Shown: one piece after another, positions 7,029-30,518 of the stretch | Layout of the letters: every line of letters starts with the position of its first letter | Position numbering within the stretch: the first letter of the stretch is position 1 | NCBI GenBank assembly: GCA_004297205.1 | Contig: SCUL01000002.1 | Span: forward strand, 77,156-141,155 | Length of the DNA stretch: 64,000 nucleotides | Reading direction: 5' to 3' | Origin: Patescibacteria group bacterium | GTDB taxonomy: Bacteria > Patescibacteriota > Patescibacteriia > 2-12-FULL-57-11 | The notes under the pieces: model-generated | Databases searched by the model: none | What the model was told of the DNA's origin: nothing | What the model saw: the letters and a program-made list of their open reading frames with translations, nothing else | Made by a program: the position numbers and the translations under genes

Positions 7029-8834
7029 TTAGGCCTTCGGACCGGTCACGGCGGCCTTGATGCGACGGATCCCCGCGGCCACGGCTTCTTCCTTTTGGAT
7101 CTTAAAGCCGCCCAAATCCCCGGTGTGGGTGACGTGCGGGCCCCCGCAGATTTCCACGGAGAAGTAGCCCTTGTCCGGCGAACCGGCCCGGTAGACTTTG
7201 ATCTTGCCGCCCAGCTGGGCGTACTTGTCGTCAAAGTAGCCGATGGCACCCGCGGCCTTGGCCTCCTCCGTGGTCATCTCGTCGTAGTTCATGGGCAGGT
7301 CGTCGGCGATGGCCTGGTTGACCTGGCGTTCGACCTCCGCGAGCTGCTCGGCCGTGACCTTCTCGGGGTTGGTGAAATCGAAGCGCAGCCGCTCGCGCGT
7401 GATGTTGCTCCCCTTCTGCATGACGTGGTCGCCGAGCACGTTCTTCAGGGCGCGGTGCAGCAGGTGCGTGGCGGTGTGCAAACGGACGACTTCTTCCGAG
7501 TGATCGGCCAAACCGCCGGCAAATTTCTGTTCGCTGCCGGCGCGCGACAAGTCCTGGTGCTTCTTGAACTCCGCCTGGAAGCTTTCGCGGTCGACGCCCT
7601 GGCCGCGCTCTCGGGCCAACTCTTCCGTCAACTCAAGAGGAAACCCGTAGGTCGTATATAGAACGAAGGCGTCCTCGCCGGTGATGGCGCCGTTCTTGGC
7701 AAAGAGCTTCTCAAACTCCTTGAGGCCGTGCTCCAGGGTGCGGCGGAACTTCTGCTCTTCCTTCAGCAGCTCCGTGGCCACGCGCTCCCGATTCCGGCCG
7801 ACGTCGGGGTAGGCGTCCTGATACATCCGTACGACCTCGTCGGCCAGCGGCACGCAGAATTCTCCCTGAATGCCGAGCTGGCGGCCGAAACGGACCGCCC
7901 GGCGGATCAGACGACGCAGCACATAGCCCTGGTCGACGTTGGACGGAGTGACGCCGCGGTCGTCGCCGAGGATCATGACCGCTGCTTTGACATGGTCAGC
8001 GACGATGCGCATGGCGCGGGTTGTAGCCTCATCAGCACCGTAGTTTTTTCCGGACAGCGTTTCGAGCACGGCGAACAACGGCAGGAACAGATCCGTCTCG
8101 AACACCGTCTTCTTGCCGCTCAAGACGGCCACGGTGCGCTCCAAGCCCAGCCCCGTGTCCACGTTCTTCTTGGCGAGCGGCACGAGCGTCCCTTCCGGCG
8201 TCTTGGCGAACTGCATGAAGACGTCGTTCCAGATTTCCACCCAGCGCTCGTCTTTGGGATCGAACGTTTCGGGCGCGGGCGCGTCGCCCGTCCAGTAGAA
8301 CATTTCCGTGTCCGGACCCTGCGGCCCCGGGTGCTTGCCGCCGGCCGGCCACCAGTTGTCGTCCTTGCCGAGGTAGGCGATGCGCGTCTCGGGCACGCCG
8401 AGCGATTTCCAGATGGCGGCGGACTCCTCGTCGCGCGGCGCGTCGGGATCACCCGCGAACACAGTCACGGCGAGCTTTGCCGGCTTGATATTCAGCCACT
8501 TTTTGCCGGTCAAAAATTCCCAGCTCCAGCGGATGGCGTCGTCCTTGAAGTAGTCGCCCAAGGACCAGTTGCCGAGCATTTCGAAGAACGTCAGGTGGCG
8601 GTTGTCCCCCACTTCCTCAATGTCGCCGGTGCGGATGCACTTCTGCACGTCGGCGAGACGGGTGCCGCCGGGGTGCGGTTCGCCCAACAGAAACGGGACG
8701 AGCGGGTGCATGCCCGCCGTCGTAAACAGCACCGAGGGGTCGTTCTCGGGGACGAGCGAGGCGCTCGGGATGATGGTGTGTCCGCGCTCCTGGTAGAAAC
8801 GCAGGAACAAGGCACGCAGTTCGGAACCGGTCAT
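7029..8834 (-). CDS. alaS: alanine--tRNA ligase, short form (601 aa; catalytic, tRNA-recognition and editing domains, no C-Ala/DHHA1 domain)
   Basis: Class II motifs are present (FTTAGM...; FEMLGNWSLGDYFK; ...GLGLERTVAVLSG), as is the editing HxxxH motif (HTATHLLHRAL). The protein ends about 270 aa short of E. coli-type AlaRS. Confidence 0.9.
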   Translation of the reverse strand: MTGSELRALFLRFYQERGHTIIPSASLVPENDPSVLFTTAGMHPLVPFLLGEPHPGGTRLADVQKCIRTGDIEEVGDNRHLTFFEMLGNWSLGDYFKDDAIRWSWEFLTGKKWLNIKPAKLAVTVFAGDPDAPRDEESAAIWKSLGVPETRIAYLGKDDNWWPAGGKHPGPQGPDTEMFYWTGDAPAPETFDPKDERWVEIWNDVFMQFAKTPEGTLVPLAKKNVDTGLGLERTVAVLSGKKTVFETDLFLPLFAVLETLSGKNYGADEATTRAMRIVADHVKAAVMILGDDRGVTPSNVDQGYVLRRLIRRAVRFGRQLGIQGEFCVPLADEVVRMYQDAYPDVGRNRERVATELLKEEQKFRRTLEHGLKEFEKLFAKNGAITGEDAFVLYTTYGFPLELTEELARERGQGVDRESFQAEFKKHQDLSRAGSEQKFAGGLADHSEEVVRLHTATHLLHRALKNVLGDHVMQKGSNITRERLRFDFTNPEKVTAEQLAEVERQVNQAIADDLPMNYDEMTTEEAKAAGAIGYFDDKYAQLGGKIKVYRAGSPDKGYFSVEICGGPHVTHTGDLGGFKIQKEEAVAAGIRRIKAAVTGPKA

Positions 8835-10690: not shown

Positions 10691-11080
10691 TCAAAAAGAA
10701 GCCACGCGTTCCCAGGAAAGAATCGTGATCGGGTTGGTGCTGGAGAGCTCGACCCGCAGACGGTAGAGGCGGGCGTTCACTTCCACCTCGGTCGTAAAAA
10801 CGGTATTGGAACCGCTCAGTTCTTTGGGCCGGATCGTACACGACAGTCCGTCGATGATGATGGTCTCGTTGCCGGCGTACTGCGCATCCTCGCTCAACCG
10901 GAGCAACGCCTGCTCCGCGCAGCCCTCCGCCAGGTATTTTGCGGCGATGTGGTCGTCCAGCCCGACCGACGTGGAAAGCTGTTGGAGCAGCACGCGGGTC
11001 GCGGAAATCGCGACCAACATCAATACGGTGCCGATGATGGTGACGCTGATGATCAAGCTGAAACCGGGTCGGTTATTCAT
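10691..11080 (-). CDS. pilin-like / pseudopilin protein (non-canonical prepilin N-terminus GFSLIISV, no Glu at +5)
   Basis: MNNRPGFSLIISVTIIGTVLMLVAIS hydrophobic N-terminus resembling type IV pilin class III signals. Start ATG 11080 overlaps the upstream pseudopilin stop. Confidence 0.55.
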   Translation of the reverse strand: MNNRPGFSLIISVTIIGTVLMLVAISATRVLLQQLSTSVGLDDHIAAKYLAEGCAEQALLRLSEDAQYAGNETIIIDGLSCTIRPKELSGSNTVFTTEVEVNARLYRLRVELSSTNPITILSWERVASF

Positions 11081-11555
11081 GGCGAAGCGTATACGTGAAC
11101 GCCGAGTCGATGCGGGGCGTTGCGCCGGACGCCGTGTCCGTTTCATACGTGACGGCGATCCGCACCGACGGCGGCGTGGCCGTCAACCGCGTCACCGTGA
11201 AGGCGGAGACGCGGACGGCATCGCTGGTGAGCGCGACCGGCGCCTGCAGACCGAGCGTCATGGTCATGACGCCGTCGGTCACTTGGAACGTGACGGGGTC
11301 GTCCGATGGGGTCGGCGAGTTGATGACGAGCTGCGTCGAGGTGGCGGACGCAGGGGTGATCACCGCCCCCGCCTGCCCCAGCCGTTCCACGATGGTGAGT
11401 TCCGCAAGCTGCTGGTTCGACACCAACTGCTGCTCGCCGGTGATGAGCGAGCGGGTGTTGAGTCCGGACAGCAGAATCGTCGTCAGCACCGCCATGCCGG
11501 AAACCAGCAGGGCGGTGTAGATGACGGTTTCGATGAGCGTGAAGCCGTGTCGCAC
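11073..11555 (-). CDS. prepilin-type N-terminal cleavage/methylation domain protein (minor pilin/pseudopilin)
   Basis: MRHGFTLIETVIYTALLVSG matches the canonical G/FTLIE prepilin peptidase site. Confidence 0.75.
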   Translation of the reverse strand: MRHGFTLIETVIYTALLVSGMAVLTTILLSGLNTRSLITGEQQLVSNQQLAELTIVERLGQAGAVITPASATSTQLVINSPTPSDDPVTFQVTDGVMTMTLGLQAPVALTSDAVRVSAFTVTRLTATPPSVRIAVTYETDTASGATPRIDSAFTYTLRHE

Positions 11556-11565
11556 ACGACGGGGG

Positions 11566-13011
11566 TTACGGAGTCGAGGTGAGGATGCGCAAGGCGTCGT
11601 TGCTCCGGACGGACACGTAGATGTTGTTGTCCGCGAAGTCGACGCCCGTCGCCATCTGCGGGAAGTTCAGGGATGCGTACTCCGTGATGTTGAGCAGATC
11701 GGAAATGTTGAGGATCTGGAATTCCTTGTTGCTGTTGGTGGTACCGGCAAAGATCAGGTTGTTCACGACGCACAGGATGTCGTTTACGTTCCCCTGCGTG
11801 TTGTATTCGTCGACGATCGTCATGTCCGTCGGGTTCGTCGAGTCGAGGACGATGATTTTGCCGTCCACGTTTCCCGTGAAAATCGTATTCGGGTCCTGGA
11901 AGGCGATGCTGATGTCGGCAAGTCCGTCATGGAGGTCGAAACTCCCCACCAAGGAAGGATTCGCCGGGTCGGTCATGTCGATGGTGGTGATGTCCTGGGA
12001 AGCGGACTCGCTGACGGCGTAGAGGTTGGTGGCGCTGACGGCGAAGTCGTTGATGTCGCCGCTGATGCCGTAGCTGGCCTCCACCACGGGACTCGCGGGA
12101 TTCGACACAGAATAGATGACGATTTCGCTGGAGGATCCCTCGGCGCGGCCGACCGCGACCCACCCGTCCGACGCCAGCACCGACAGGGCGTTGGCGCTTC
12201 CCGACATGTTGACCGAACCGATGCTCGCCGTTGAGGTGGGCGTCGTCACGTCGAAGACGATCAGCTCCTTGCCGTCGTTGGGTGAAGCGGCGTACAGCGT
12301 GTTGCCGGACAACGACAGGGAGTTGATGCCGCCGGAGCCGATGTCGACGCTCGTGACCAATGTCGGTGCCGCGGGATTCGACACGTCGAAGACGAAGAGG
12401 TCGGGCTTGGACGCGCTGGCCGCGACGCCGCTCACGAAGGCGTACGGCAGCTTGACGGCGATGTCCGTTCCTTGGTTTCCGGAACCGATGTCCGCCGAAC
12501 CGAGTACGACCGGATTGGACCAATCTCCCGTGGCGGAAAACGTCGAGCGGCAGTTGCTGGCAAGCGGCAGGGGTAGGCCCTGCCAGTGGGTGAGGCGGGA
12601 GGTTGCGGAGGCGACCGCGTTGCCGCCCCCCGCCGACGTCCATTGCACCGTCACGACCACCTCCCGGGCGTCGTCGCCGACGGCAATCACGACCACGGAA
12701 CGATGGTAGATGCCGTCCTGGACGTCCTCCGATCCGCTGAACGACCAAACGTTCCCGTTCAGAACCAACCCATGGGTACCGACGGCAAGGGCGTCCCAGT
12801 CGGTATTGCGGATCTGCCGCGCCGCCTCCTGGCCCTCCTGCGCCAGGTTCTGAGCGGCCTGTCGCTGGCGGCTGAGCGCATCCTGGGACAGGGCCGTGCC
12901 GAACAACGTGAACGCCGCCATCGTCAGGAGGACGAACAGCGCGAGCGCGATCATGACTTCGACGCTACTCTGTCCCCTTCTCCCACTCGACCACGCCATA
13001 GGGTGAAACAT
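11566..13011 (-). CDS. prepilin-type N-terminal domain protein fused to a large LVIVD-repeat beta-propeller domain
   Basis: N-terminus ...RRGQSSVEVMIALALFVLLTMAAF has G at -1 and E at +5. The C-terminal 400 aa carry repeated ...YAVS/..DITTIDMTDPANPSLVGSFDL.. units typical of LVIVD (PF08309) propellers. Likely start is Met at about 12999. Confidence 0.7.
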   Translation of the reverse strand: MFHPMAWSSGRRGQSSVEVMIALALFVLLTMAAFTLFGTALSQDALSRQRQAAQNLAQEGQEAARQIRNTDWDALAVGTHGLVLNGNVWSFSGSEDVQDGIYHRSVVVIAVGDDAREVVVTVQWTSAGGGNAVASATSRLTHWQGLPLPLASNCRSTFSATGDWSNPVVLGSADIGSGNQGTDIAVKLPYAFVSGVAASASKPDLFVFDVSNPAAPTLVTSVDIGSGGINSLSLSGNTLYAASPNDGKELIVFDVTTPTSTASIGSVNMSGSANALSVLASDGWVAVGRAEGSSSEIVIYSVSNPASPVVEASYGISGDINDFAVSATNLYAVSESASQDITTIDMTDPANPSLVGSFDLHDGLADISIAFQDPNTIFTGNVDGKIIVLDSTNPTDMTIVDEYNTQGNVNDILCVVNNLIFAGTTNSNKEFQILNISDLLNITEYASLNFPQMATGVDFADNNIYVSVRSNDALRILTSTP

Positions 13012-13414
13012 GGATGAAGTACGATTGATCGCCGTCTTTAAGCGTGAACGTTCCGTCCATGACCGGCCGGAGCGATCCCGAAGGAAAGACGATTTCCGTG
13101 AGGCCGGAGAGGGTAACGGGGCCCGGCAGATCGGTGGTCACGTCCTTGCTCGGGACGCGCGTCGCGTAGGTCGTGCCCGCGAAACGCACGACGTGATCCG
13201 TGAACACCGCGACCCCGTGCGCCTGATCGTCGGTTTGCGTGAAGGCGTCCGATCGCGCTTGGGCGATCTCCGCCGCAACGGTCTCCGCGGCGGCGGCCAA
13301 CCGTTGCGTGCTCAGGAAGGCGAAGGACAACGTGGCGCCGAGTCCCGCGAGCATGAGCATGAGCGCGAGCACGACGGTCGTTTCGATGAGGGTGAAGCCG
13401 CGCATGCCCGTCAA
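12965..13414 (-). CDS. prepilin-type N-terminal cleavage/methylation domain protein (pseudopilin, GspH/FimT-like size)
   Basis: MTGMRGFTLIETTVVLALMLMLAGLG is the canonical class III signal. Confidence 0.75.
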   Translation of the reverse strand: MTGMRGFTLIETTVVLALMLMLAGLGATLSFAFLSTQRLAAAAETVAAEIAQARSDAFTQTDDQAHGVAVFTDHVVRFAGTTYATRVPSKDVTTDLPGPVTLSGLTEIVFPSGSLRPVMDGTFTLKDGDQSYFIHVSPYGVVEWEKGTE

Positions 13415-14517
13415 CGCACCGTGTTTATTCCCTGCGTCAGCTGGTAGATCGGCGTGATGATGGAGATGGCGATGAACCCGACCAAGACGCCGATCAGCAC
13501 CATGAGCAACGGTTCGAGGATCGTGGTGAGATTTTTGGTGGCGTCATCGACCTCCCGTTCCATGACGGTGGACAGGTACTGGAAACACTCGTCGAGCCGC
13601 CCGGTTTCCTCGCCCACGCTGATCATCTGGCTGACGAATGGCGGGAAGAGACGGGGATTTTTGAGCATCTGCTCCGAAACGTTCCTCCCCTCCTGCACCG
13701 TCTCCCCGATCATGCTGAGTTCGTGCTGGTAGACGCGGTTGTTGATGGCGACGCTGGCGATTGAAAACCCCTCGACGATCGGAATGCCGGATTTCAGCAG
13801 CGTCGAGATGACGGCGGAAAGCTGGGTGATCTCCGTCTTGATGATGACCTGTCCGAGAATCGGCGCGCGAAGGAGGATCGCGTCGATGACGTAATGGAAG
13901 CGCGGCAGCCGCAGCAACAGGACGAAGGCGATGACGAAGACGATGGAACCCGCCAGAACGTAGACGCCGTAGGAAATCAGGAACCGCGACAGGTCCAAAA
14001 CGAGCTGGGTCGTCCATGGCAACTTCACGTTCAGGGAAATGAAGAGCGGCTGCAGCTGCGGGAGCAGGACGAAGAGCATGTACACGGCGATCGCCACCGT
14101 TCCCGCGATGACGATCACCGGATACAGCATGGCGCTGCGAATCTTGGACTGCAGATCGTGCGACTTTTCCAAATAGGCGCTGATGTGAAGGAAACTTTCG
14201 GTCATCGTCCCGGATTCTTCGCCGACGGACACGAGTTGCGTCAAAAGGTTGTTGAACAGGCGGGGCATCTTCTTCATGCTCGAGGATAGGAACTGGCCGG
14301 AAGAAACGTCGCTGAGCATGATGTGCAGCACCTGGTGCATCGTCTTCGACCGCACTTGGTTGTGCATGGCCAGCAGGCTCCGTTCGAGGGGCACGCCGGA
14401 TTCCGTCATGATGCCGAGGTATTTGAAAAGCGTGATCCGCTCCTTCGAAGAAATCCAGGCGAACTTCGGGAGACGGGTCGACCATGGCTGCCGTTCCTCT
14501 TTTTTGTCGCGGGCCAT
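13411..14517 (-). CDS. pilC: type IV pilus assembly platform protein PilC / GspF family
   Basis: Two GspF-type repeats with 3 TM segments, ...PLERSLLAMH...GEESG... and ...GEETGRLDE... motifs. Overlaps the pilB stop region. Confidence 0.9.
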   Translation of the reverse strand: MARDKKEERQPWSTRLPKFAWISSKERITLFKYLGIMTESGVPLERSLLAMHNQVRSKTMHQVLHIMLSDVSSGQFLSSSMKKMPRLFNNLLTQLVSVGEESGTMTESFLHISAYLEKSHDLQSKIRSAMLYPVIVIAGTVAIAVYMLFVLLPQLQPLFISLNVKLPWTTQLVLDLSRFLISYGVYVLAGSIVFVIAFVLLLRLPRFHYVIDAILLRAPILGQVIIKTEITQLSAVISTLLKSGIPIVEGFSIASVAINNRVYQHELSMIGETVQEGRNVSEQMLKNPRLFPPFVSQMISVGEETGRLDECFQYLSTVMEREVDDATKNLTTILEPLLMVLIGVLVGFIAISIITPIYQLTQGINTVR

Positions 14518-14521
14518 ACGG

Positions 14522-15829
14522 CTACTCCTGGATGACGCGCAAGACCTCCGCGATGGACGTCATGCCGTCCGCGGCTTTCCTGACCCCGTCCATGACCATG
14601 GTCGTCATGCCGCCCAGAACGGCCGCCTTGCGGATGGCGTCGGCGTTCTCGCGCTGCATGATCATGTGCCGGATTTGCTCGGTGATCTCCATCACCTCAT
14701 AGATGCCTATGCGGCCGGAGTACCCCGTGTTGTTGCATTCCTTGCAGCCGACGGGTTCCGCAAACAGGGTGTTTTTCGTCAGCATGTCCGCGGGAAGGAC
14801 GTCCTTGAGGCTGTTGCGTTCCACGGCGGTCAGGACCCGTTTCGTGGCGCAGGCCGTGCACAGTTTCCGGACCAGACGCTGACCGATGGCCACGTTGACG
14901 GTGGAGGCGATCAGGAAGGGTTCGATGCCCATGTCCAGCAGGCGCGGCAGCGTGACGGCGGCGTCGTTGGTATGCAGGGTCGAGAGCAGCAAGTGTCCGG
15001 TCATGGCCGCGTTGACGGCGATGCCGGCGGTCTCCTGGTCGCGGATCTCCCCCACCATGATGATGTTCGGATCCTGACGGACGATAGAGCGCAGCCCCTG
15101 CGCGAACGTCAGGTTGGTGCGGACGTTCACGGGAATCTGCGTGACGCCGGCCATGGCGTACTCGATGGGGTCCTCGATGGTGATGATCGAGCGCTGCCGC
15201 GTGTTCAGCACCTGCAGGATGGAGTACAGGGTGGTTGTCTTTCCGGAACCCGTCGGTCCGGTGGCCAGGATCATCCCATAGGACTTGTGGAGGCTGCTTT
15301 CCACCGTCCGCAAATCCTTCTCCGACATCCCCAGTTCGTGCAACGCGAGGGACTTGGCCTGACCGACCAACAGACGCATGACGATGTTCTCCCCGTGGTA
15401 GGTCGGCGTAATGGAGACGCGGACGTCCACCGGCATGTCGTCGAACACCATGCGGAAGCGGCCGTCCTGGGCCTCAAGGTGCGCGTCCGTGCGCAGCTCC
15501 GAAAGGACCTTCACGCGCGTAATGAGCATGGCATGGACGGCCTTCGGCAGCATCAGGACGTCGTGCAGAATGCCGTCAATGCGGTAGCGGATGACGATGA
15601 ACGCTTCCTCCGGCTCCACGTGGACGTCCGAGGCCCGCGAGGAATACGCGTACCGGACGATGCCGTCCGCGAGATCCTTGATCGTCGTGTTTTCCAGTTT
15701 CTGGATGCCGCGGAGCGCTAAAATCTGCTGGGAGTCCTGAACGGATTTCCGCAATTGCACTTCGATGGTTCCCTTTTCTTTTGTCTCGGCCGCCCGGGGT
15801 TTCATTTGCGGCATGTGCATGACATTCAT
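14522..15829 (-). CDS. pilB: type IV pilus assembly ATPase PilB / GspE family (short, no N1 domain)
   Basis: Walker A GPTGSGKTTT, Asp box, Walker B IIMVGEIRD and His box, plus the tetracysteine CTAC...CKEC motif of GspE/PilB. Confidence 0.9.
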   Translation of the reverse strand: MNVMHMPQMKPRAAETKEKGTIEVQLRKSVQDSQQILALRGIQKLENTTIKDLADGIVRYAYSSRASDVHVEPEEAFIVIRYRIDGILHDVLMLPKAVHAMLITRVKVLSELRTDAHLEAQDGRFRMVFDDMPVDVRVSITPTYHGENIVMRLLVGQAKSLALHELGMSEKDLRTVESSLHKSYGMILATGPTGSGKTTTLYSILQVLNTRQRSIITIEDPIEYAMAGVTQIPVNVRTNLTFAQGLRSIVRQDPNIIMVGEIRDQETAGIAVNAAMTGHLLLSTLHTNDAAVTLPRLLDMGIEPFLIASTVNVAIGQRLVRKLCTACATKRVLTAVERNSLKDVLPADMLTKNTLFAEPVGCKECNNTGYSGRIGIYEVMEITEQIRHMIMQRENADAIRKAAVLGGMTTMVMDGVRKAADGMTSIAEVLRVIQE

Positions 15830-15844
15830 ACACAGTATACGCGA

Positions 15845-15895
15845 TTGACGGTGGAAAAAATAGTTGTGTCATGTGGAAAAACATGATAGGTTATC
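15845..15895 (+). promoter_or_regulatory. AT-rich divergent promoter region between pilB and pilA (TTGACG -35-like at 15845-15850; -10 uncertain)
   Basis: The only AT-rich stretch in 20 kb (ggaaaaaatagttgtgtcatgtggaaaaacatgataggttatctgttgataag). I cannot assign a clean -10. Confidence 0.3.
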
Positions 15896-15920
15896 TGTTG
15901 ATAAGTCTTTTTTCCCAGGT

Positions 15921-16376
15921 ATGAGCATTCTCAAACGCCGGCGAGGTTTCACGCTGCTCGAAATCCTCATCGTGATGGCGCTTATCGCCATTTTGATAGG
16001 TATCGTCGTCGTCGCACTCAATCCCGCCCGCCAATTCGCTTCCGCGCGCAATTCGACGCGGTACGCGCACCTCAACACCGTCATGAGCGCCATCAGCTCC
16101 AACATGGCGGAGAACCGCGGGACGTTCACCTGCGCCAGCGGCGCCATCCCGGCGACGTCGACCCTCATGGCCTCCACGGGCGGCTACAACATCGCCCCGT
16201 GCCTTGTGACGAACTTCATCTCGTCCATGCCGGTCGATCCGTCCGACCCGGCCGCGATTTGGACGTCGACCAGCACCTACGCCTCCGGCTACGCCATTTC
16301 ACGCGGAGCTGACGGCCGCATCACGCTCGACGCCCCTTCGGCCGAGCTCGGCTCCTCGATCAGCCTGACGCGCTAA
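15921..16376 (+). CDS. pilA: type IV major pilin (PilA-like, class III signal)
   Basis: MSILKRRRGFTLLEILIVMALIAILIGIVVVALNP matches the textbook G/FTLLE site. Cys pair in the C-terminal half. AGGT RBS. A strong terminator follows. Confidence 0.85.
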   Translation: MSILKRRRGFTLLEILIVMALIAILIGIVVVALNPARQFASARNSTRYAHLNTVMSAISSNMAENRGTFTCASGAIPATSTLMASTGGYNIAPCLVTNFISSMPVDPSDPAAIWTSTSTYASGYAISRGADGRITLDAPSAELGSSISLTR

Positions 16377-16388
16377 CGAGCGACGCAA

Positions 16389-16418
16389 AACACCCCCGGT
16401 CGGGGGTGTTTTGTTTTT
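16389..16418. terminator. rho-independent terminator after pilA (also positioned for convergent mnmA)
   Basis: ACACCCCCGgtcGGGGGTGT stem plus TTTTGTTTTT. An A-run lies on the other side. Confidence 0.8.
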
Positions 16419-18141: not shown

Positions 18142-18813
18142 TCAACCCTCCAGACGCGCTGTCACCCAGTCAGCAACCTGTTCCAGAAACGCGGGATACG
18201 TTTCAAACATCCGCGTGCCGTGCCCGGCGTCGGCGAACTGTTTAACGTCCGTTTTTGCCAACGAACGTTCCATCAACTTCTCGACGCTCGGACCGGAAAT
18301 CTCGTCGTCGGCGCTGCTGGCCAAAAAAACATGGCGGTCGCGCGTCAGGGACTGGATGAGCGGCATGGTGGCGACGTCGCGGTAATTCAAACCGGGCGAA
18401 AGCAGCACCGCACCCGGAACGTCGGCGTGCGCGGCCGCGTATTGCAAGGCAAGGTTGGCGCCGATGGAAGCGCCGACCAGCACGAGGTCGACGGTTCTGA
18501 CGCCGTGCGTCTTTTCAAGGAACGCGACCGCCGCTTCGACGTCTTTGATCTTGGCCTGATGCTCTGGATGCGCGAACGTCGTGTAGTCGAGCGTCCGACC
18601 GTCGGTTGTTTCGGTGCTTTTGCCGTGTCCACGGAAGTCGATGGCCAGGGACGAGACGCCGCGCACGGCGAGCGCTTCCATGAGCGGCGCGTAGGACTCC
18701 TTGGTTGCGGGCATCATGTGCAACAGCAGCGCCCAGCGTTTGCCGTCCCCCGCTTCGCGGACCGTGCCGACGATGCGGACGCCGTCGTCGGTGACGAACG
18801 TCACAGTGGTCAT
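18142..18813 (-). CDS. alpha/beta hydrolase (dienelactone hydrolase / esterase-like)
   Basis: Nucleophile elbow GASIGA (GxSxG) and HGxxxxxD-type catalytic residues near the C-terminus. About 220 aa. Confidence 0.75.
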   Translation of the reverse strand: MTTVTFVTDDGVRIVGTVREAGDGKRWALLLHMMPATKESYAPLMEALAVRGVSSLAIDFRGHGKSTETTDGRTLDYTTFAHPEHQAKIKDVEAAVAFLEKTHGVRTVDLVLVGASIGANLALQYAAAHADVPGAVLLSPGLNYRDVATMPLIQSLTRDRHVFLASSADDEISGPSVEKLMERSLAKTDVKQFADAGHGTRMFETYPAFLEQVADWVTARLEG

Positions 18814-20930
18814 GGCGATGCGGGTTGCGGCAGATCCTCGGCCGGCGTGGACGTGGCGCCGGTCAGCCGCTCGATGCGGGCCTGCAGTTCACGGTTGCCG
18901 GGCGCGAGCGCCGCGGCGGCCTCGTACCAACGCACCGCGTCGGCGGTGCTGCCGCGCTGCTCGAGGAGCTGGGCCAGCAGGAGGTAGGCGGACGGGTCGC
19001 CGCCGGCGGCGGAGGCGCTGGCCGCGATCTCTTCGGCCACGCGGACCGCCTCATCAATGCGGCCGGTCCGGGCCAGCAGCCCGGCGAGGCGGGCGCGGGC
19101 GATGAGCAGTGCCGGCGCGATGCGCACGGCGTCGCGATAGGCGGCTTCGGCGGCCGCGGTGTCCCCGCTCAGGTCGGCGAAGTCCCCGGCCGCGACGGCA
19201 AACGTCGGGTTGCTCGGTTCACGCACGCGGGCGGCGGCGATCCAACCGCTGAGTTCCGAAACGTCCGCGCCCGCGGCCGTCAGCTGCATGCCGACCGTGA
19301 TCGCCGCTTCCAAGGTGGCCGCGCTTTGCGTGCCGCTGACCGCGGCGCGGGTCCGTGCCAGCGCCGTTTCCAGCGTGGTCTTCAGGCCCGCTTCATCCGT
19401 CGCGCCGTCCGCGCGGAAGAGCGCCTGCAACGCGCCGATCGCCTGCCACTCCGGCGCCGCGTTCCAGCGCAGAAGGGCGGCATAGGCCTCATCCTGCGCG
19501 GCCGGATCGGTGGCCCGCAGCAAGCGTCCCGCGGCGTTCTGGGCTGCCGCCAACCAGACGGCAGCGGCCAGGAGGAGCACGGTCAGGGCCAGCAGGCCCG
19601 CCGTCAGCCAGCCGGCCAGGAGCGCCTGTCGGCCGCCGGTCTTGGCGGCGGATTCCGTGTCTCGCGCGACCAGCCAGCCGGCCAGGAGCGCCAGGGTCAG
19701 CAGGGCAGCTTGGGGCAGCAGAAGGATGCCTGCGGCAAAGGTCGCGGCTGCGGCGGCGGCAAAGACGCCGGCGGCCAGTGCCGCGCCGTCCGCATCCGGC
19801 GTGACGCGGCGGGCGAAGACGCGGCGGATGCCTTTGACCTGGGGCGGCGCGCCGATCAGTTTCCACCCGGCGGCAAACGACGCGCCGAGCGAGACGGCCA
19901 GCGCCAGCGTCCCGACCGGACCGAGTTCATACAGGAACTGCAACAGCGTCGAGGCCGGAACCGGAATGCGCACGTTCCAGAGCGCGGTCGTGTTCAACAA
20001 CTCGGGGCGGACGCGGGCGAAGGCCTCGGCGAAACCGCCGGGTCCGACGCCGGCGAAGGTCGCTGGCTCCTGCGTCCAGAGGCGCGCCAGGGCCGCGGCG
20101 GTTTCCGACTGACGGACGTTGATCTCCACCGGGAGATCGGCGACAAGCGGCGGTGGCAGGCGGACGAAGGACAGCACCAGGGCCGCGGCCGCCGCGACGA
20201 AAGCGGCCTGGGTGGTCGGCCGGTGGACCTGGTCGAAGCGCCGCACGACGTGGATGAGCAGCACGACCAGACCGACGAACAGGGCCGCCCAAGCGGCCGC
20301 GCGATCGGCGCGGACAAGCACGGCCAGATGCAGCAGGACGGCGACGAGCGCCACGGCGCGGGCCGGCACGGCGCGTCCGGCGGCCAGGGCGTACCCGAAG
20401 GCAAGCGGCATCGCGATGACGGAGAGCAGCGCCACGGCGGTCGGTGCCGCTGCAGCGAAGGCCGCGGGCACCGGCACGGCCGGCAGGAACGTCTTCAGCA
20501 GGAACAACGCTTGATGCGCCGTCAGGAGGCCAAGCACGACGGCCGGCAGCACGCTCCGTGCCCGGCCGGTGACGGCGGCGGCGACGAGGAAAGCGCCCGC
20601 AACGGCCAGCAGCAGCGTCGCGGAACCGGTCCACAGCGCCGCACTCCCCCAAAAGGCGCGGCCGGGATTTCCGCCCGCCGCGAGCGACACGAGCACGGCC
20701 AGGACGAAGACGCCGAGTCCGACCAGAAAGACGCGGTCCGGCCGCGGACGCAGCAGGGCCTCGCGCCCCGCGGTGCAGGCGGCAAGGACCAGCGCCAAAA
20801 CGAGCGCGGCGCGGGCGTCGCCGACCGGATCGGCCGCACCGGGCAGATACGCAAAAAGGGCCGCGGCAACGGCCAAAGCAACAAAGACGGCGGGCAGCGC
20901 TGCCCGCAGATCGGCAGGGGCGGTTTTCAT
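18810..20930 (-). CDS. polytopic membrane protein, O-antigen ligase-like (Wzy_C-type) with C-terminal TPR repeats
   Basis: About 12 TM helices. Loop motif ...STLLQFLYELGPVG... resembles the Wzy_C/O-antigen ligase signature. The last 200 aa are TPR-like Ala-rich repeats (AYRDAVRIAP..., AVRWYEAAAALAP...). Confidence 0.55.
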   Translation of the reverse strand: MKTAPADLRAALPAVFVALAVAAALFAYLPGAADPVGDARAALVLALVLAACTAGREALLRPRPDRVFLVGLGVFVLAVLVSLAAGGNPGRAFWGSAALWTGSATLLLAVAGAFLVAAAVTGRARSVLPAVVLGLLTAHQALFLLKTFLPAVPVPAAFAAAAPTAVALLSVIAMPLAFGYALAAGRAVPARAVALVAVLLHLAVLVRADRAAAWAALFVGLVVLLIHVVRRFDQVHRPTTQAAFVAAAAALVLSFVRLPPPLVADLPVEINVRQSETAAALARLWTQEPATFAGVGPGGFAEAFARVRPELLNTTALWNVRIPVPASTLLQFLYELGPVGTLALAVSLGASFAAGWKLIGAPPQVKGIRRVFARRVTPDADGAALAAGVFAAAAAATFAAGILLLPQAALLTLALLAGWLVARDTESAAKTGGRQALLAGWLTAGLLALTVLLLAAAVWLAAAQNAAGRLLRATDPAAQDEAYAALLRWNAAPEWQAIGALQALFRADGATDEAGLKTTLETALARTRAAVSGTQSAATLEAAITVGMQLTAAGADVSELSGWIAAARVREPSNPTFAVAAGDFADLSGDTAAAEAAYRDAVRIAPALLIARARLAGLLARTGRIDEAVRVAEEIAASASAAGGDPSAYLLLAQLLEQRGSTADAVRWYEAAAALAPGNRELQARIERLTGATSTPAEDLPQPASP

Positions 20931-20932
20931 GC

Positions 20933-21382
20933 TTACGGTGATGAACGGAACAAACGCTCCACCTCGTCCACCCAGCGGACGGCGTCAGGATCCTGTCCCT
21001 CGACGCGGCTCGGAACGGGCGGAGCGGCGGTACCAATGGCTGCCGGAATGGCGGCGGCAGGCACCGGGGAGGCAAAAATCCGGTCGAAGACGGCCACCAG
21101 TCCGCGGTCGGCGGAAGAACGGACTTCTTCGGCGCCGAGCGCCAAACGGCCCCAGCCGATCACCAGCACGTCTTCGGCGCGCAGCGTGACCTCGTCCCAC
21201 GAGGCCATGCCGCGACGCATCGAGTCCGAGAGCGCGGCCAGCGGATGGAAATCCGCGACGGCAGTTGCGAGGCGGTACGGCGCGGCCGCGAGATCCGTCC
21301 GCAGGTCGGAAAAATCCCGCGCCTGCACCGAGGCGGGCGCGAGCGTCAGACAGAACAGGAGGATGGCGACCAGGCGCTTCAT
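20933..21382 (-). CDS. secreted hypothetical protein (signal peptide)
   Basis: MKRLVAILLFCLTLAPASVQA signal peptide. No homology recognised. Confidence 0.5.
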   Translation of the reverse strand: MKRLVAILLFCLTLAPASVQARDFSDLRTDLAAAPYRLATAVADFHPLAALSDSMRRGMASWDEVTLRAEDVLVIGWGRLALGAEEVRSSADRGLVAVFDRIFASPVPAAAIPAAIGTAAPPVPSRVEGQDPDAVRWVDEVERLFRSSP

Positions 21383-23184
21383 GGCTGCTGCGGGTCATCG
21401 AACGAGACGACTTCGCCCGGCGCGGGGCGGCCTCCCGCTTTCTGGAACGGCACCGGTGTGGCGGCGGGGATTGCGGACAGGGGGACGTTCTTGGCCGGTT
21501 CCGGCGGCGCGGACTCGACGGGAATTGCCGCCGCTTGCTTGCGCTCCTCTTTTACGATTTTGAAACAGTCGTCGCAGAAGTACGGCCGGCTCGGATCCGG
21601 CTGGAAGGTCAGCTGCATGGTTTTGCCGCAGCGCGCGCAGACCGCGTCATAGGCCTGCTTGCCCGGCTTCGGCGCGGCGGGCTTCGCGGCCGGTTTGGCG
21701 GCGGCAGCCGGGGCGGAGGCGGCCTTTGCGGGAGGCGGAGGCGCCACAGGCGTCGTGGGACGCGGCGCGGCAGGGCGGGGCGCCGGGGCGCGCAACGCGG
21801 GCGCGGCGGCTGCGACCACGAACCGCGGCGCCGCGGGCCGGGGCGCGGCGGCAGCCGGAGCCGCGGCCGATACGGTCGGTGCCGCGCCGAGGAATCCGGC
21901 CCAACGCAGGATCTTTTCCTCGACCACGGCGCGCGGCTGGGCGTAGCGCTCGCGGGACACCTTGATGACGCGCTCCGTGCTGCCGGTGCGCGCATTGATC
22001 GGCGGCAGCGTGTTGGCGGAAAAAATCTCCGAGGCCACGCCGTCGATCATCAATTTGATGTAGACCTCGAACTTCGTCAGGTTGGTCAAATCCTCCGGAA
22101 TGAAGCGCGGCGCGACTTCCTGCTCCAGGAAAAGGGCGTCCGCGGCGCCGACGCGGAAGAAAATCATCGTGCCGACGTTGCCGAAGACGGCCGGACGCAC
22201 GTAGTCCTCGTCGAGCTGTTCGATGTACTGGTGGGCGACGATCAGGTTGAGCCGGTATTTGCGGGCCTCGGACAGAATATTGGCGAAGCTGGCCGTGGCG
22301 AAATTCTGGAATTCGTCGACGTACAGGTAAAAATCGCGGCGCTCCTCCTCGGCCATGTCGACGCGCTCCATGACGGCGAGCTGCAGCTGGGTGATGAGCA
22401 TGCCGCCCAACAGGCGCGAGGAGTCTTCGCCGATGCGTCCCTTGGCCAGGTTTATGATCAGGATCTTTCCCTCGTCCATGATCTCCCGCATGTTGATCGT
22501 GGACTTCACTTGGGCGACGATGTTGCGGATGATGGTGGCCGCCAAAAACTGACCGACCTTGTTCTGGATCGGGGCGATGGCCTCGTTGCGGAAGCGGTCC
22601 TCCCAACGCGCGTATTCATCGACCCAGAAGGCCTTCACCACCGGATCCTTCAGTACGGAGACGACGCGCTTGCGGAATTCCTTGTCGACCAGGATGCGGT
22701 TGATGCCGAGCAGCGTGGAATCGGGATATTCCAGGAGCGACAGGATGCACTGGTTGAGGATGTGCTCCATGCGCGCGCTCCAGACGTCCGGCCAGATCTT
22801 CTTGAAGACGCCCATCAGCCCCTGCGCCACGAGCGGCCGGTTGGCTTCGTCCACGGCCTCGAGCAGGTTGAAGCCGATCGGATATTCGATGTCCGCGGGG
22901 TTGAAGTAGACGACGTCGTTGATGCGCTCCGGCGGGATGAAGTCGAGCAGGCGCTCCGCCGTGTCGCCGTGCGGGTCGACATAGGCCACGCCGTGGCCGG
23001 CGTTGATGTCGTTCAGGATCATGTTTTCGAGGAGCGTCGTCTTGCCCATGCCGGTTTTGCCGAGCACGTAGACGTGCCGGCGCCGGTCGTCCGTCTTGAT
23101 GCCGAACTTGCGCCGCGCGTTGCGGTAGTTGGTCTCGGCGAAGAGGTTGATCTCGCTCTCGTGGTCGTGCGGGTAGGACGCCAT
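21379..23184 (-). CDS. P-loop ATPase of the VirD4/TraG/TrwB coupling-protein or HerA/FtsK-like family, with Pro/Ala-rich linker and C-terminal CxxC...CxxC zinc ribbon
   Basis: Walker A VLGKTGMGKTT. ...YVDPHGD...VVYFNPAD...IGFNLLE resembles T4CP nucleotide-binding-domain motifs. Walker B FYLYVDEFQNF. C-terminal CARCGKT...FCDDCF. No TM segment in this protein. Confidence 0.65.
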   Translation of the reverse strand: MASYPHDHESEINLFAETNYRNARRKFGIKTDDRRRHVYVLGKTGMGKTTLLENMILNDINAGHGVAYVDPHGDTAERLLDFIPPERINDVVYFNPADIEYPIGFNLLEAVDEANRPLVAQGLMGVFKKIWPDVWSARMEHILNQCILSLLEYPDSTLLGINRILVDKEFRKRVVSVLKDPVVKAFWVDEYARWEDRFRNEAIAPIQNKVGQFLAATIIRNIVAQVKSTINMREIMDEGKILIINLAKGRIGEDSSRLLGGMLITQLQLAVMERVDMAEEERRDFYLYVDEFQNFATASFANILSEARKYRLNLIVAHQYIEQLDEDYVRPAVFGNVGTMIFFRVGAADALFLEQEVAPRFIPEDLTNLTKFEVYIKLMIDGVASEIFSANTLPPINARTGSTERVIKVSRERYAQPRAVVEEKILRWAGFLGAAPTVSAAAPAAAAPRPAAPRFVVAAAAPALRAPAPRPAAPRPTTPVAPPPPAKAASAPAAAAKPAAKPAAPKPGKQAYDAVCARCGKTMQLTFQPDPSRPYFCDDCFKIVKEERKQAAAIPVESAPPEPAKNVPLSAIPAATPVPFQKAGGRPAPGEVVSFDDPQQP

Positions 23185-23187
23185 AGT

Positions 23188-24669
23188 CTACGCGCCGGGC
23201 AGGTTCGCCGGGGGCTCCCCCGTCGCGGCGGTCGGGGCCTGCTTGGGGGTGAATACCGGCGGCCGCTCGACCGGCAGGCGGATCGGCGGTTCGGCGCGCT
23301 TGGATTCGGCCTTCTTCAGGGACGGCGTCTTCACCAGGAGCGACGGGAAGTGCCAGATCGAAGCGAGCTCCTCGGTGGACAGGATGTAGTGCTGGGCGCC
23401 GCGCCAGTTGGAACGGTACTTGTACGCCAGGAAGATCGACTTGATGCGCTCGTTCGTCGTCTTGTAGAACGTGCCGGACAGGTAGAAAAAGATCGGGTTG
23501 AGCTGCCAGAAATAGTCGTACTTCGTGGTGACGGAGCCCGCGAACCCGAGCTTGTTCATGTTCAGCGTCGTGAACTGCTGCAGCGCGCCGCGCACGAAGG
23601 AGATGATCGTGCCGGTGCGGAACTTCTTCTTCGGCGCGATGTAGATGAAACGAATCTTGGTGTGCAGGCCGATCTTGGACAGCTTCTGTTCGACGCGTTC
23701 CACGACGAACCGTTCGCCCGGCGAGAGGTAGAGCATCTGGGAACGCACGTCGTCCTTCTTCTGCACCGGCTTGGCGGACTCGCCGCCGACCAGTCCTTGC
23801 ACGCCCAAGTCGAGCGCGTGCAGCGGCAGGTCCATGGCTTTGTCGAGCATCGTCGCTTTGGGCGTGACCTTGGTGCCGATCAGTTTCTTGACCAGCTTCT
23901 CGCCCTTCTCCTGCCAGTCCTGCTTGGTCGTGGTCACGAGCATCTGCAGCCACACCTGCTCGCCCGGCTGCAGCATGGCCAACGACTCCAACAGTCCGGC
24001 CATGGGATCCTTGAACTCGCCGGAGACCGGGTCGGTGAAATCCGCATGGGTCTTGAGCGGGTAGTATTCCGGCTTGCTCAGCACGAACTCCGAACCGAAC
24101 AGGCCCCACTCCTTGTTCGGCCACGGCCACTTCTGGGGCGCGTTCAGCACGTAGTCCTCGACCTCGGTGATTTCCGCTTCCGGGTACTGCGCGTAGACGA
24201 TGGCTTCCACGAGGTCGCGGTATTTGGACCAGACGCGGATCAGGAACTGGACGTAGCCTTCGATGGAGACGATTTCGAAACTGAACACCGGGTGCATTTT
24301 GCCTTCCCAGTACTTTTCCTTGCGCGTGTGGGTCGAGTGCGCGCCCAAGAGGTGCGCGAAGATGTTTTCGACGGCCTTCGGCGTCTGTTCCGTGGACTTC
24401 GGCACGTCGATGGCCAGCAGCACCGGGTTCACGCTCTGCATGAACTTGAACTGCCGCTCGTTGATCCAGATCCACCAGAACCCGCGCAACATGACGATGA
24501 GCATGGGGATCCAGCCGCCGGCACGGAAAAGCTCCCACATGATGATCAAGGGGTGCTGCGCTCCGAGCCAATCCATCCAGACGAGAATGGCGGCAACGTC
24601 GATGGTGATCGACGGCATAGGCGCACATAGTATAACACATGGAAAACAAAGAGGGGCATGGTCTGCCAT
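23188..24669 (-). CDS. membrane protein (2 N-terminal TM helices plus about 400-aa soluble domain), co-operonic partner of the VirD4/HerA-like ATPase
   Basis: 3-nt gap to the ATPase gene. Lower local GC. Trp/Tyr/Lys-rich. Probable start is Met at about 24621 (MPSITID...). No family recognised. Confidence 0.55.
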   Translation of the reverse strand: MADHAPLCFPCVILCAPMPSITIDVAAILVWMDWLGAQHPLIIMWELFRAGGWIPMLIVMLRGFWWIWINERQFKFMQSVNPVLLAIDVPKSTEQTPKAVENIFAHLLGAHSTHTRKEKYWEGKMHPVFSFEIVSIEGYVQFLIRVWSKYRDLVEAIVYAQYPEAEITEVEDYVLNAPQKWPWPNKEWGLFGSEFVLSKPEYYPLKTHADFTDPVSGEFKDPMAGLLESLAMLQPGEQVWLQMLVTTTKQDWQEKGEKLVKKLIGTKVTPKATMLDKAMDLPLHALDLGVQGLVGGESAKPVQKKDDVRSQMLYLSPGERFVVERVEQKLSKIGLHTKIRFIYIAPKKKFRTGTIISFVRGALQQFTTLNMNKLGFAGSVTTKYDYFWQLNPIFFYLSGTFYKTTNERIKSIFLAYKYRSNWRGAQHYILSTEELASIWHFPSLLVKTPSLKKAESKRAEPPIRLPVERPPVFTPKQAPTAATGEPPANLPGA

Positions 24670-25598: not shown

Positions 25599-27350
25599 TC
25601 AGGAACGCTTGGCAACACCGAAGATCCACAAGTGCTTTTCCATCCAGCGGCCGGCCAGCGCCCGCAGGAAGGTACGGGTCACGATGATGGCCGTGAACAT
25701 GGACACCAGGATGCCGATGGCCAGCGTGACGGCGAAACCTTTGACGAGCGAGGTGCCCAGCCAGGCCAGGATGGCGCAGGTGATGAGCGAGGAGGCGTTG
25801 GAGTCGCGGATCGACAGCCAAGCGCGGCGGAAGCCTTCATCCATGGCGTCGCGGATGGCCTTCCCGCTCCGCAATTCCTCCTTCATGCGTTCGAAAATCA
25901 GGATGTTGGCGTCCACGGCCATGCCCAGCGACAAGATGAACCCGGCGATGCCGGCCAGGGTCAGCGTCACGCCGATCATCTTGAACACCGCCAAGGTCAG
26001 CGCGGCGTAGACGACGAGCGCCACCGTGGCCACGACGCCCAGGAAGCGGTAGATGACGAACATGAACAGCGCCACGACGGCGAAGCCGAGCAGCCCGGCC
26101 ATCAGCGACTTGGCGAGCGACTCCGCGCCGAGCGACGCGCCGACCGTCTGCTGGTTGACCAGCGTGATCGGCACCGGCAGGGCGCCGGCGTTCAGGTTGC
26201 GCACCATCTGCTTGGCTTCCGGAATGGTGTACCGGCCGGTGATGACGGCTTCGCCCACCAGGATTTCCTGCTGGACCACCGGATCCGACAGCAGCACGCC
26301 GTCCAGGAAGATGGCGACCGGTTTGCCGACGTTCCGTTTGGTGATTTCGCCGAACAGCTTCGTCCCCTCGTCGTTGAACTGAAGGCCGATCTGGACGACG
26401 CCGGTCTGTTGGTCGAACAGGACGTTGGCGCGGCGCAGATGGGCGCCGGTGAGTCCGCTGTTTTTCCACTGTTCAGGTGGCACGATGTCTGTCTCCGCCA
26501 GCTTCTTGAACAGGATGTGGCTGGCGCGGTACTCGGGTACGGTGGAAGTGGCCGTGGTGCCGTCGGACAGCTCGAGCTCCGGACCGGCCGCTTCGCGCTC
26601 CCCGGTCTTTTTGATGATGTGGTAGCCGAAGGCGGTCGCCACCGGCGTCTTGCTGATCTCGTCCACCTTCAACGCGGCCACGGCGGTTTCGAATTCGGGC
26701 ACGGTGGTGCCGGCGGTGAACCAGTCGAGGTCGCCGCCGTTGTCCTTGCTGCCCGGGTCGTCGGACAGTTCCTTGGCCAGCGCGGCAAAGTCGGCGCCGG
26801 GCTCCCGCACGCGCTTCAAGGCGTCCTGCGCTTTCTTCTTGGCTTCGGCGTCGCTGTCGGCAAGCTGTTTCTTTTCCTCGGCGGTCAGCGGGCGGGCCGG
26901 TTCCGTGCTGACTTCCTTGAACTCCAACAGCGGCGTTTCGCCGATCTGGCGGATGGCCTCATTCACGTCCAGGATGCCGGCCAGGTCCACGATCAGGCGG
27001 TACTTGTCGCCGACGATCGCGGTCTGCACCAACGGTTCGGACACGCCAAAGGCGTTGACGCGCCGCTCGATCACCTCGCGCAGACCATTGAGCTGTTCGC
27101 GGCGGTCGGCTTCCGGCACGCTCTGCATGTCGGCCTCGTAGACGAGGTGGGAGCCGCCTTGAAGGTCGAGACCGAGCCGGAAGGCCTTGGTCGGGAACTC
27201 CGGCAACGGACCGCGGATGCGGTTCCAGACGGAGGGATCCACGAACAGGCCGGCCAGCGCGCCGACAACGAGGAGCAAAAGCGCGACCCAGCGCAGGCGG
27301 GCCGCCGGGGCGCGGAACAGCATGCCGAGGGGGTTGGAGGGAGTGGCCAT
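25599..27350 (-). CDS. secD: protein translocase subunit SecD with an inserted parvulin-type (PpiC) peptidyl-prolyl isomerase domain in the periplasmic P1 region
   Basis: SecD TM and P1 motifs are present (...[28 protein letters not shown]...[13 protein letters not shown]...). An inserted segment of about 100 aa reads ...[63 protein letters not shown], the parvulin signature. Start ATG 27350. Confidence 0.85.
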
Positions 27351-30493: not shown

Positions 30494-30518
30494 ATGCCAT
30501 CATCTTACACTACGAGTT

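Follow-up and report, generated by a model that had tools for sequence, protein, structure and literature searches.

The 64,000-nucleotide stretch of DNA analysed in this study (contig SCUL01000002.1 of a Patescibacteria group bacterium; hereafter, the window) contains seven type IV pilus (T4P) genes between positions 10691-16418, encoding PilB, PilC, four minor pilins and PilA. One of the minor pilins, a protein of 481 aa, joins a pilin module to a C-terminal β-propeller built from LVIVD repeats. We consider it likely that the locus is the complete, self-contained T4P operon of a Parcubacteria/Uhrbacteria-related Patescibacteria cell and that the propeller is displayed as an adhesin at the pilus tip. 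A preliminary description, made from the sequence of the window, had regarded the locus as a secretin-free module of monoderm or episymbiont type. That description agrees with the origin of the DNA, a Patescibacteria metagenome-assembled genome (MAG), and with published data on the bacteria belonging to the Candidate Phyla Radiation (CPR), which are documented to have PilB, PilC, PilT, PilM, PilN, PilO and PilD and to lack PilQ (PMC6744442).

The genes and associated features of the locus are as follows, in the order of transcription for the minus-strand genes.

14522-15829, minus strand: pilB, 435 aa; T2SSE (Pfam, E=8e-120)
13411-14517, minus strand: pilC, platform protein, 368 aa; T2SSF in two stretches (Pfam, E=1e-49)
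12965-13414, minus strand: minor pilin 1 ('H149'), 149 aa; signal G/FTLIE, N_methyl (Pfam)
11566-13011, minus strand: modular minor pilin with propeller, 481 aa; LVIVD and Beta_propel (Pfam)
11073-11555, minus strand: minor pilin 3 ('W160'), 160 aa; signal G/FTLIETVIY, N_methyl (Pfam)
10691-11080, minus strand: minor pilin 4 ('X'), 129 aa; signal MNNRPG/FSLIIS, no Glu5
15921-16376, plus strand: pilA, major pilin, 151-aa precursor; N_methyl (E=1e-8)
15830-15920: pilA/pilB intergenic region, presumed promoters; 37% GC
16385-16418, plus strand: intrinsic terminator after pilA; 13-bp stem, 4-nt loop, U-run
11550-12300, minus strand: variable, putatively exchanged cassette in the propeller gene; blades 3-7, approximately residues 237-481

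The presence of a propeller in the 481-aa protein is supported by several lines of evidence. The LVIVD family (PF08309) matches with 34.6 bits, as against a gathering cut-off of 20.2, and the match to Beta_propel (PF09826) has 30.3 bits, where 22.4 are required; no Pfam match to the RCC1 family was found in the protein. Seven [LIV]x[VI][FYL]D[VI][ST]xP-like strands are legible in the sequence, and most of the homologues carry PF08309 in precomputed Pfam annotation. An AlphaFold2 model, calculated from a 67-sequence alignment, has a mean predicted local distance difference test value (pLDDT) of 93.3 and a predicted template-modelling score (pTM) of 0.76. It consists of an α1 helix of 55 residues (15-69), a small β-sheet (77-140), a linker (approximately 141-152) with a pLDDT of about 61, and 29 strands between residues 153-477, which form seven four-stranded blades and a closing strand. 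The pTM is consistent with two mobile modules. It is apparent that the LVIVD propeller read earlier from the sequence is present, both in the Pfam profile and in the model; its length is approximately 325 aa, however, and not the 400 aa first estimated. An N-terminal class III pilin module, a short linker and a non-pilin module are also the three parts by which modular pilins have been defined (Raynaud et al. 2021). Fold searches with the propeller retrieved generic seven-bladed propellers, with E. coli YncE among the best structural matches, and a profile search of the PDB with the whole protein gave weak WD40 matches only. Two cysteines, Cys154 at the start of the propeller and Cys414 in blade 6, are invariant in the close homologues and are found in about one third of the wider family, which suggests a putative clade-specific disulfide that would staple the propeller.

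The signal of the 481-aa protein, thought at first to be canonical, is semi-canonical (G13/QSSVE18, where the slash separates positions -1 and +1). Among the 76 family members with an N-terminus, position -1 is Gly in 72 and Ala in 4, position +1 is Gln in 67, and position +5 is Glu in 74. Judged from these residues, the propeller pilin is a protein that retains a predicted class III signal and the residues for packing in the filament (G-1 and E+5), despite the unusual Gln at +1. The closest homologue, found in the nearest relative of the window, designated L005 (JBBUJK010000041.1, 9968-11437), is one of those with Ala at -1 (RRA/QSSVE).

These features are relevant to the possibility that the 481-aa protein is no pilin, but a surface propeller anchored in the membrane by an uncleaved signal and merely co-regulated with the pilins. 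The Gln at +1 and the occasional Ala at -1 would be understandable in such a protein, as would its N_methyl score of 13.7 bits, which lies under the cut-off, and the same type of propeller occurs in thousands of giant surface proteins that are not pilins. A simple anchor would not, however, be expected to keep G-1 and E+5 nearly invariant throughout the family, or to have a long α1 helix followed by a pilin β-sheet, as in the model. Several homologues do pass the N_methyl cut-off in precomputed Pfam annotation, and the gene is invariably placed among minor pilin genes whose frames overlap or lie close together. This explanation is, therefore, regarded as very improbable.

The other minor pilins provide information on where in the pilus the propeller would be situated. 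In the respective families, the N-terminal motifs are G/FTLxE for H149 (kept in 76 sequences), G/FTLIETLIY for W160, G/[YF]xxx[TIVLM] for X and G/FTLIELL for PilA. Glu5 is absent in all 77 members of the X family, and X has two invariant Cys. The structures that the predicted model of X resembles most are those of GspK, PilA of S. sanguinis and GspI. Weak N-terminal matches were obtained in NCBIfam for H149 to GspH (E=8e-8), for W160 to GspI (E=5e-3) and for the propeller pilin to GspJ (E=4e-3) and also to ComGE; PDB profile searches with the W and X families gave matches over α1 only. On this basis, H149 is a candidate GspH/FimU-like pilin, and X, going by its model, would be a tip subunit of the GspK/PilX class.

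Two features of an HIJK-type tip complex are thus found in the locus: four minor pilin genes in the assembly operon and a K-type pilin that has no Glu5 and is predicted to fold like GspK/PilX. In known systems, a K subunit lacking Glu5 caps the HIJK complex (PMC9934059), and in S. sanguinis the Glu5-less PilA is the nucleus of a tip complex whose modular pilins, PilB and PilC, present adhesive modules (PMC9934059, PMC8179133). The Com pilus also employs a four-minor-pilin scheme (PMC12153270). With four minor pilins, of which one is K-like and Glu5-less and one bears an effector, the operon appears to fit this scheme, and the absence of Glu5 from X, together with its GspK-like model, would place the minor pilin set at the pilus tip. 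A precedent exists in the CPR for a propeller thought to occupy that position: PilX2 of Nanosynbacter lyticus TM7x, a minor pilin whose signal is non-canonical and whose heptabladed propeller is of the RCC1 type, has been proposed to be a tip adhesin, and its deletion halves host binding while the filament is still extruded (PMC11623550). The model, the GspK-like partner and the PilX2 precedent all support the suggestion, made in the preliminary description, that the propeller pilin is a candidate tip adhesin; by analogy with these systems, it probably is one.

The remaining components are among those expected of a type IV filament (T4F) system, namely an extension ATPase of the GspE/PilB family, a polytopic platform protein of the GspF/PilC family and class III signal peptides (G-1, hydrophobic α1N, E+5). 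PilB, which like PilC had been recognized from the sequence and is confirmed by the Pfam match listed above, is a short form that lacks the GSPII_E_N/MshEN region at its N-terminus. Its translation contains the Walker A motif GPTGSGKT and a tetracysteine motif, CTAC...CKEC, of a kind typical of extension ATPases. The signal of PilA is MSILKRRRG/FTLLEILIV, and two Cys are situated in its C-terminal half. Canonical signals of the type G/FTL[IL]E are found in three proteins (PilA, H149 and W160), and the non-canonical ones number two (the propeller pilin and X) rather than one. PilA had also been called divergent. This is true of the orientation of its gene; in sequence, PilA is the best-conserved pilin of the module.

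In NCBIfam, PilB scored 479 bits with GspE, 454 with PilB, 235 with ComGA (cut-off 300) and 165 with PilT, all under the equivalog cut-offs. The scores of PilC were 269 bits with GspF, 238 with PilC and 130 with ComGB (cut-off 240), all far under those cut-offs. PilA exceeded the cut-off of IV_pilin_GFxxxE and gave a weak full-length match to GspG. Since GspE and GspF provide the best scores, and the pilins match GspG, GspH, GspI and GspJ weakly, it could be argued that the locus encodes a pseudopilus, similar to that of a type II secretion system (T2SS), which pushes proteins out of the cell and is not a surface pilus. None of these scores, however, comes near the equivalog cut-offs; the window yielded no secretin, GspC, GspL or GspM; and CPR cells possess no outer membrane to be crossed. 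In addition, a PilT gene is linked to the module in some relatives, and a bulky propeller at the tip is better suited to display than to the action of a piston. A pseudopilus is, consequently, the least credible of the explanations considered here, and is thought to be extremely unlikely.

The minus-strand reading frames of the locus overlap or are closely spaced (the start of H149 overlaps the stop of pilC by 4 nt), so that organization as an operon is expected; pilA is transcribed divergently, from the plus strand. The last gene, that of X, was initially read as encoding 151 aa. Its longest open reading frame (ORF) does reach 11146, but NCBI annotates a 129-aa form (EPO33_01695). The pilA/pilB intergenic region, of approximately 92 bp, has a G+C content of 37%, as compared with a window mean of 63%. 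It has the lowest 100-bp G+C content of the entire window and is the sole stretch below 45% from 1 to 27.6 kb, which bears out the earlier remark that the promoter region is the only AT-rich stretch in 20 kb. It is presumed to hold the promoters; a scan for σ70 consensus sequences, which gave zero sites in 10-17 kb, was not used as evidence. The strong terminator noted previously after pilA, between the convergent genes pilA and mnmA, was also found: its 13-bp stem is perfect (-23 kcal/mol, z=-3.6 relative to shuffled sequences) and is followed by a U-run. A generic terminator scan overlooked it, and that scan, too, was not used as evidence.

Pfam scans covered approximately 67 ORFs across the 64-kb window. 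No match to Peptidase_A24, PilT, PilM, PilN, PilO, PilP, Secretin or ComEC was found among them, nor to comEA, dprA, GspC, GspL or GspM. The lack of PilM/N/O/P/Q, PilT and a prepilin peptidase reported in the preliminary description thus holds for the window, 64 kb of a contig of 855,898 bp, in which no secretin or full pilMNOPQ set was found to contradict its view of the system; it does not extend to the genome. A tblastn search of the window with the PilT of a relative matched PilB only. A crude scan of hydrophobic ORFs for the GxGDxK prepilin peptidase motif, a method of low sensitivity, found none in the window or in 84 related loci. The combination of a PilQ secretin and PilMNOP that characterizes the type IVa pilus (T4aP) of diderm bacteria was, likewise, neither encoded in the window nor recurrent in the flanks of related loci.

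It was of interest to determine how widely the module is distributed. More than 130 full-length homologues of the propeller pilin were identified, with 25-65% identity and lengths of approximately 450-520 aa. They derive from Uhr-, Harrison-, Zambryski-, Jorgensen-, Wolfe-, Lipton-, Brenner-, Colwell- and Falkowbacteria and from unnamed Patescibacteria. The organism labels of some TPA_asm MAG records ('uncultured Gammaproteobacteria', 'Saccharibacteria') are unreliable and were not used as taxonomy. When 1.84 billion cluster representatives were searched with a profile, 13,796 matches were obtained at E<=1e-30. These include many one-propeller pilins of about 470 aa, two-propeller pilins of about 790-980 aa and giant proteins of 3-7 kaa with up to 20 propeller stretches, a spread which suggests that the LVIVD propeller is a widely used extracellular module in these organisms. 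Proteins headed by a pilin module extend from about 790 to 2,000 aa and have two to nine propellers; the giants measure 3,000-6,900 aa.

Synteny was examined in 84 loci (82 of them distinct), in which single-sequence phmmer searches with the seven proteins of the window recovered all of the components. The commonest order is pilB-pilC-H-propeller-W-X-pilA on one strand, found in 48 of the 84 loci, in addition to truncated versions. All seven genes are present in 59 species (complete loci), and the order H149, propeller pilin, W160 and X directly after pilC is kept in more than 70 loci. In the clade of the window itself, pilA is divergent and lies upstream of pilB. In five species, a gene for PilT (343-348 aa, with a ANLIRENKVEQI motif) is situated directly downstream of the module in convergent orientation; the window and L005 have no adjacent PilT. 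The 149 proteins encoded by the flanking genes (two per side, in approximately 40 species) are housekeeping proteins, and no recurrent pilus, peptidase or competence family was observed among them; neither pilMNO nor pilD accompanies the module in these flanks. Such surroundings suggest that the seven genes form a self-contained unit, which moves from one core-genome context to another. Taken together, these comparisons of gene content and order show a predicted pilus design that is conserved across the Parcubacteria, in many of their candidate phyla.

The proteins of the module have diverged to different extents. Median identities to the proteins of the window, in the 59 complete loci, are 58% for PilB, 49% for PilA, 37% for PilC, 34% for the propeller pilin (with full-length coverage), 31% for X, 30% for H149 and 29% for W160. 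In the propeller pilin, conservation is highest in the closing strand (VRSNDALRI) and in blades 7, 1 and 2, and lowest in blades 5-6. A striking pattern emerged from the comparison with L005. Six of the proteins are 79-92% identical in the two loci, as against 65% for the propeller pilin, in which blades 4-6 are 35-55% identical. The number of substitutions per synonymous site (dS) is 1.2-1.35 in blades 3-6; for the neighbouring genes it is 0.3-0.5, and for the pilin module of the same gene 0.43. DNA identity is 83-94% over the locus and both flanks; it falls sharply to 55-68% at approximately 11,550-12,300 and returns to the higher level precisely where the propeller gene ends. The raised dS and the sharp boundaries point to more than relaxed or positive selection, namely to recombination with a divergent allele that replaced the distal propeller, and this pattern indicates that blades 3-7 represent a putative exchanged cassette.

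Faster evolution of the propeller pilin than of its neighbours was considered as a general rule and rejected; in other close pairs it keeps in step with the other minor pilins or is slower. In one such pair, the propeller pilin is 81% identical and PilC 73%, which suggests that a similar exchange may have occurred there. Silent propeller cassettes, comparable to pilS of Neisseria, were sought by tblastn of the propeller against the window, and the gene itself was the only match.

The conservation of part of the propeller raises the question of whether the propeller pilin acts mainly as a primer or plug of assembly, as does PilY1 in Myxococcus, and has been kept because the filament cannot be started without it. 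In all complete loci its gene occupies the same place in the operon, the protein is conserved to a degree similar to that of PilC, and the strong conservation of the closing strand and of blades 7, 1 and 2 would be in keeping with such a role; the priming role of PilY1 is cited in PMC11623550. The same study, however, found PilX2 of TM7x to be dispensable for extrusion of the filament, and variable, exchanged blades 3-6 would be unexpected in a purely structural part. A function mainly in priming is, for these reasons, deemed unlikely, although it would be compatible with that of an adhesin, since the two roles are not mutually exclusive.

In the interpretation favoured here, that of a propeller displayed at the tip of a complete pilus, PilB would act as a hexameric extension ATPase that drives the PilC platform, causing PilA to be polymerized. 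The four minor pilins would prime assembly and end as a cap at the tip, as do the HIJK complexes of T2SS and T4aP and PilABC of S. sanguinis. The Glu5-less, GspK-like X would enter first and occupy the apex. The 481-aa pilin would be inserted by means of its α1 helix and pilin module, so that its flexibly linked, seven-bladed LVIVD propeller would be shown at the tip and bind a ligand. A single chain would thereby merge what is a pair of proteins in diderm bacteria, a minor pilin and the separate propeller protein PilY1. Blades 7, 1 and 2 and the closing strand would form a structural scaffold, and blades 3-6, which are variable and appear to be exchanged between lineages, would probably set the specificity for the ligand or host. 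No secretin would be needed, because CPR cells have no outer membrane (PMC6744442). Genes for the prepilin peptidase and, if there are such, for a retraction ATPase and PilMNO would lie elsewhere in the genome; PilD is widespread in the CPR (PMC6744442).

Several observations weigh against this interpretation. Gln at +1 is unusual for a substrate of PilD, and four members of the family have Ala at -1, so that cleavage is regarded as putative. The generic propellers retrieved in the fold search give no pointer to a ligand. The mosaic pattern is based chiefly on one close pair, that of the window and L005, and among the other close pairs there are some in which the propeller pilin is not the gene that diverges most rapidly. 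In the 64 kb of the window, neither a prepilin peptidase nor PilT nor PilMNO was found, and when the PilT of a relative was used as a query, no protein of the source contig appeared among the best 120 of 7,973 matches.

A broader hypothesis can be put forward more tentatively. It is conceivable, albeit doubtful, that the module represents a minimal T4P without PilMNO or secretin that is Parcubacteria-wide and vertically inherited, in which the role of PilY1 has been absorbed by an LVIVD-fused minor pilin with blades 3-6 as a swappable specificity cassette. If so, the system would be a pilus-borne counterpart of the swapping of receptor-binding proteins in phages, and its sequence would offer a means of predicting which hosts are used by uncultivated CPR bacteria.

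The surroundings of the locus in the window consist of housekeeping genes according to Pfam: a ribosomal protein/rpoA cluster, infA, alaS, a DD-carboxypeptidase gene, mnmA, secDF, secA, murB/C, dnaB and others. Some of these have unusual features. The alanyl-tRNA synthetase (7029-8834, minus strand) has just 601 aa, with catalytic and SAD domains and no further C-terminal domain detected. SecD (25599-27515, minus strand) contains a PPIC-type peptidyl-prolyl isomerase domain (Rotamase, residues approximately 215-304) between its N-terminal SecD segment and the P1 head, an insertion that would join a foldase to a translocon accessory protein. A coupling ATPase that is VirD4/TraG-like and has a treble-clef zinc finger at its C-terminus is encoded at 21379-23187 (minus strand), adjoining a 493-aa ORF without a Pfam match (23188-24669); both may belong to a monoderm-type type IV secretion system, of the kind reported for Patescibacteria (PMC12102498). 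Two paralogous HD-domain genes (YfbR-like 5′-deoxynucleotidase; 28212-29192 and 33079-33702, both on the minus strand) lie near NUDIX, MazG-like, pyrophosphatase and nucleotide-kinase-like genes, in what is a nucleotide-salvage neighbourhood. Two regions are anomalous in base composition. A block at 18800-22000 has a G+C content of 70-75%, compared with 63% for the window, and a strong positive AT skew; it encodes a 706-aa protein whose sole Pfam matches are C-terminal TPR repeats. At 29470-30520, around a radical-SAM gene (29495-30493), there is a low-GC cluster (39-41% in 100-bp windows), which is exceeded in AT content by no part of the window other than the pilA promoter region.

CPR bacteria other than the Saccharibacteria, i.e. 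the Parcubacteria/Paceibacteria, are abundant in groundwater and almost uncultured, and the means by which they find and hold their hosts are nearly unstudied. A propeller that is predicted to be displayed at the tip, with a conserved scaffold and a variable, recombining face, is a candidate determinant of host recognition. As a small soluble domain, it could be expressed and screened for ligands, and its gene could serve as a marker in comparative and host-range studies. The locus also provides a clean example of a putative four-minor-pilin tip complex with the effector in cis and without recruitment of PilY1.

Among the known systems, the Com pilus of the Firmicutes (a type IVd pilus) has the same composition. 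Both comGA-GG and the operon in the window comprise seven genes (ATPase, platform protein, one major and four minor pilins) and have no PilMNO or secretin (PMC12153270). In the module described here, the major pilin gene is last or divergent, rather than third as in Com, one of the minor pilins bears a propeller, and PilT is linked in some relatives. It might be proposed, then, that the locus is the CPR counterpart of comGA-GG, with a tip, possibly the propeller, that captures DNA for import by ComEC in transformation or nucleotide scavenging. The identical composition would be explained, as would the lack of linkage to pilMNO in all flanks examined; 86% of CPR genomes encode ComEC, and Saccharibacteria have been found to be naturally competent. 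YncE, among the best structural matches of the propeller, binds single-stranded DNA. However, PilB and PilC score far higher with GspE/PilB and GspF/PilC than with ComGA and ComGB, for which they remain under the cut-offs, and no comEC, comEA or dprA was found in the window. PilT adjoins the module in the five relatives mentioned above, and Com pili are not known to possess PilT. A lineage-variable, recombining propeller face suits a variable ligand better than it does DNA, and the essentiality of T4P in Southlakia is unrelated to competence. A pilus for DNA uptake is, on these grounds, considered unlikely.

The arrangement predicted for the tip resembles other known complexes but differs from them in its effector. 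GspH-I-J-K of T2SS and FimU-PilV-W-X with PilY1 of diderm T4aP are also four-minor-pilin tip complexes, whereas the effector of the window's pilus is in cis. The propeller pilin does not fall in the PilY1/PilC tip adhesin family (IPR008707), in which a C-terminal propeller is carried by a non-pilin protein. In PilABC of S. sanguinis, the effector modules are vWA (in PilB) and a lectin (in PilC) instead of a propeller (PMC8179133, PMC9934059); there are three minor pilins in that species rather than four, and its machinery includes PilMNO and PilT. The same architecture as that of the propeller pilin, IPR012902-IPR013211 (a prepilin motif with LVIVD repeats; IPR013211 is LVIVD, PMC10210494), is listed in Dataset S1 of Raynaud et al. 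2021. By summing of rows, approximately 30 of the 1,219 modular pilins in that dataset have 1-13 LVIVD motifs, including an example from Falkowbacteria. LVIVD is listed there as a motif of unknown function, without analysis of structure, operon, tip complex or evolution.

A direct parallel is T4P-2 of Nanosynbacter lyticus TM7x, since PilX2 and the protein described here are both propeller-bearing minor pilins of CPR bacteria (PMC11623550). The propeller of PilX2 is made of RCC1 repeats and that of the window protein of LVIVD repeats, a comparison made by means of Pfam and the published description of PilX2. The TM7x loci include pilMNO, with the pilins in a separate locus, whereas the predicted system in the window is a single seven-gene operon without pilMNO, conserved across the Parcubacteria. 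Secretin-less pili of CPR bacteria, modular pilins and the requirement for a propeller pilin in the binding of TM7x to its host are thus established in the published literature. Full-text searches for LVIVD with pilin, and for Parcubacteria with pilin and propeller, revealed no dedicated description of this family or operon. To the known systems the present analysis adds a confidently predicted structure for an LVIVD pilin, a GspK-like partner, a seven-gene module without PilMNO that is found throughout the Parcubacteria, and distal blades that appear to recombine.

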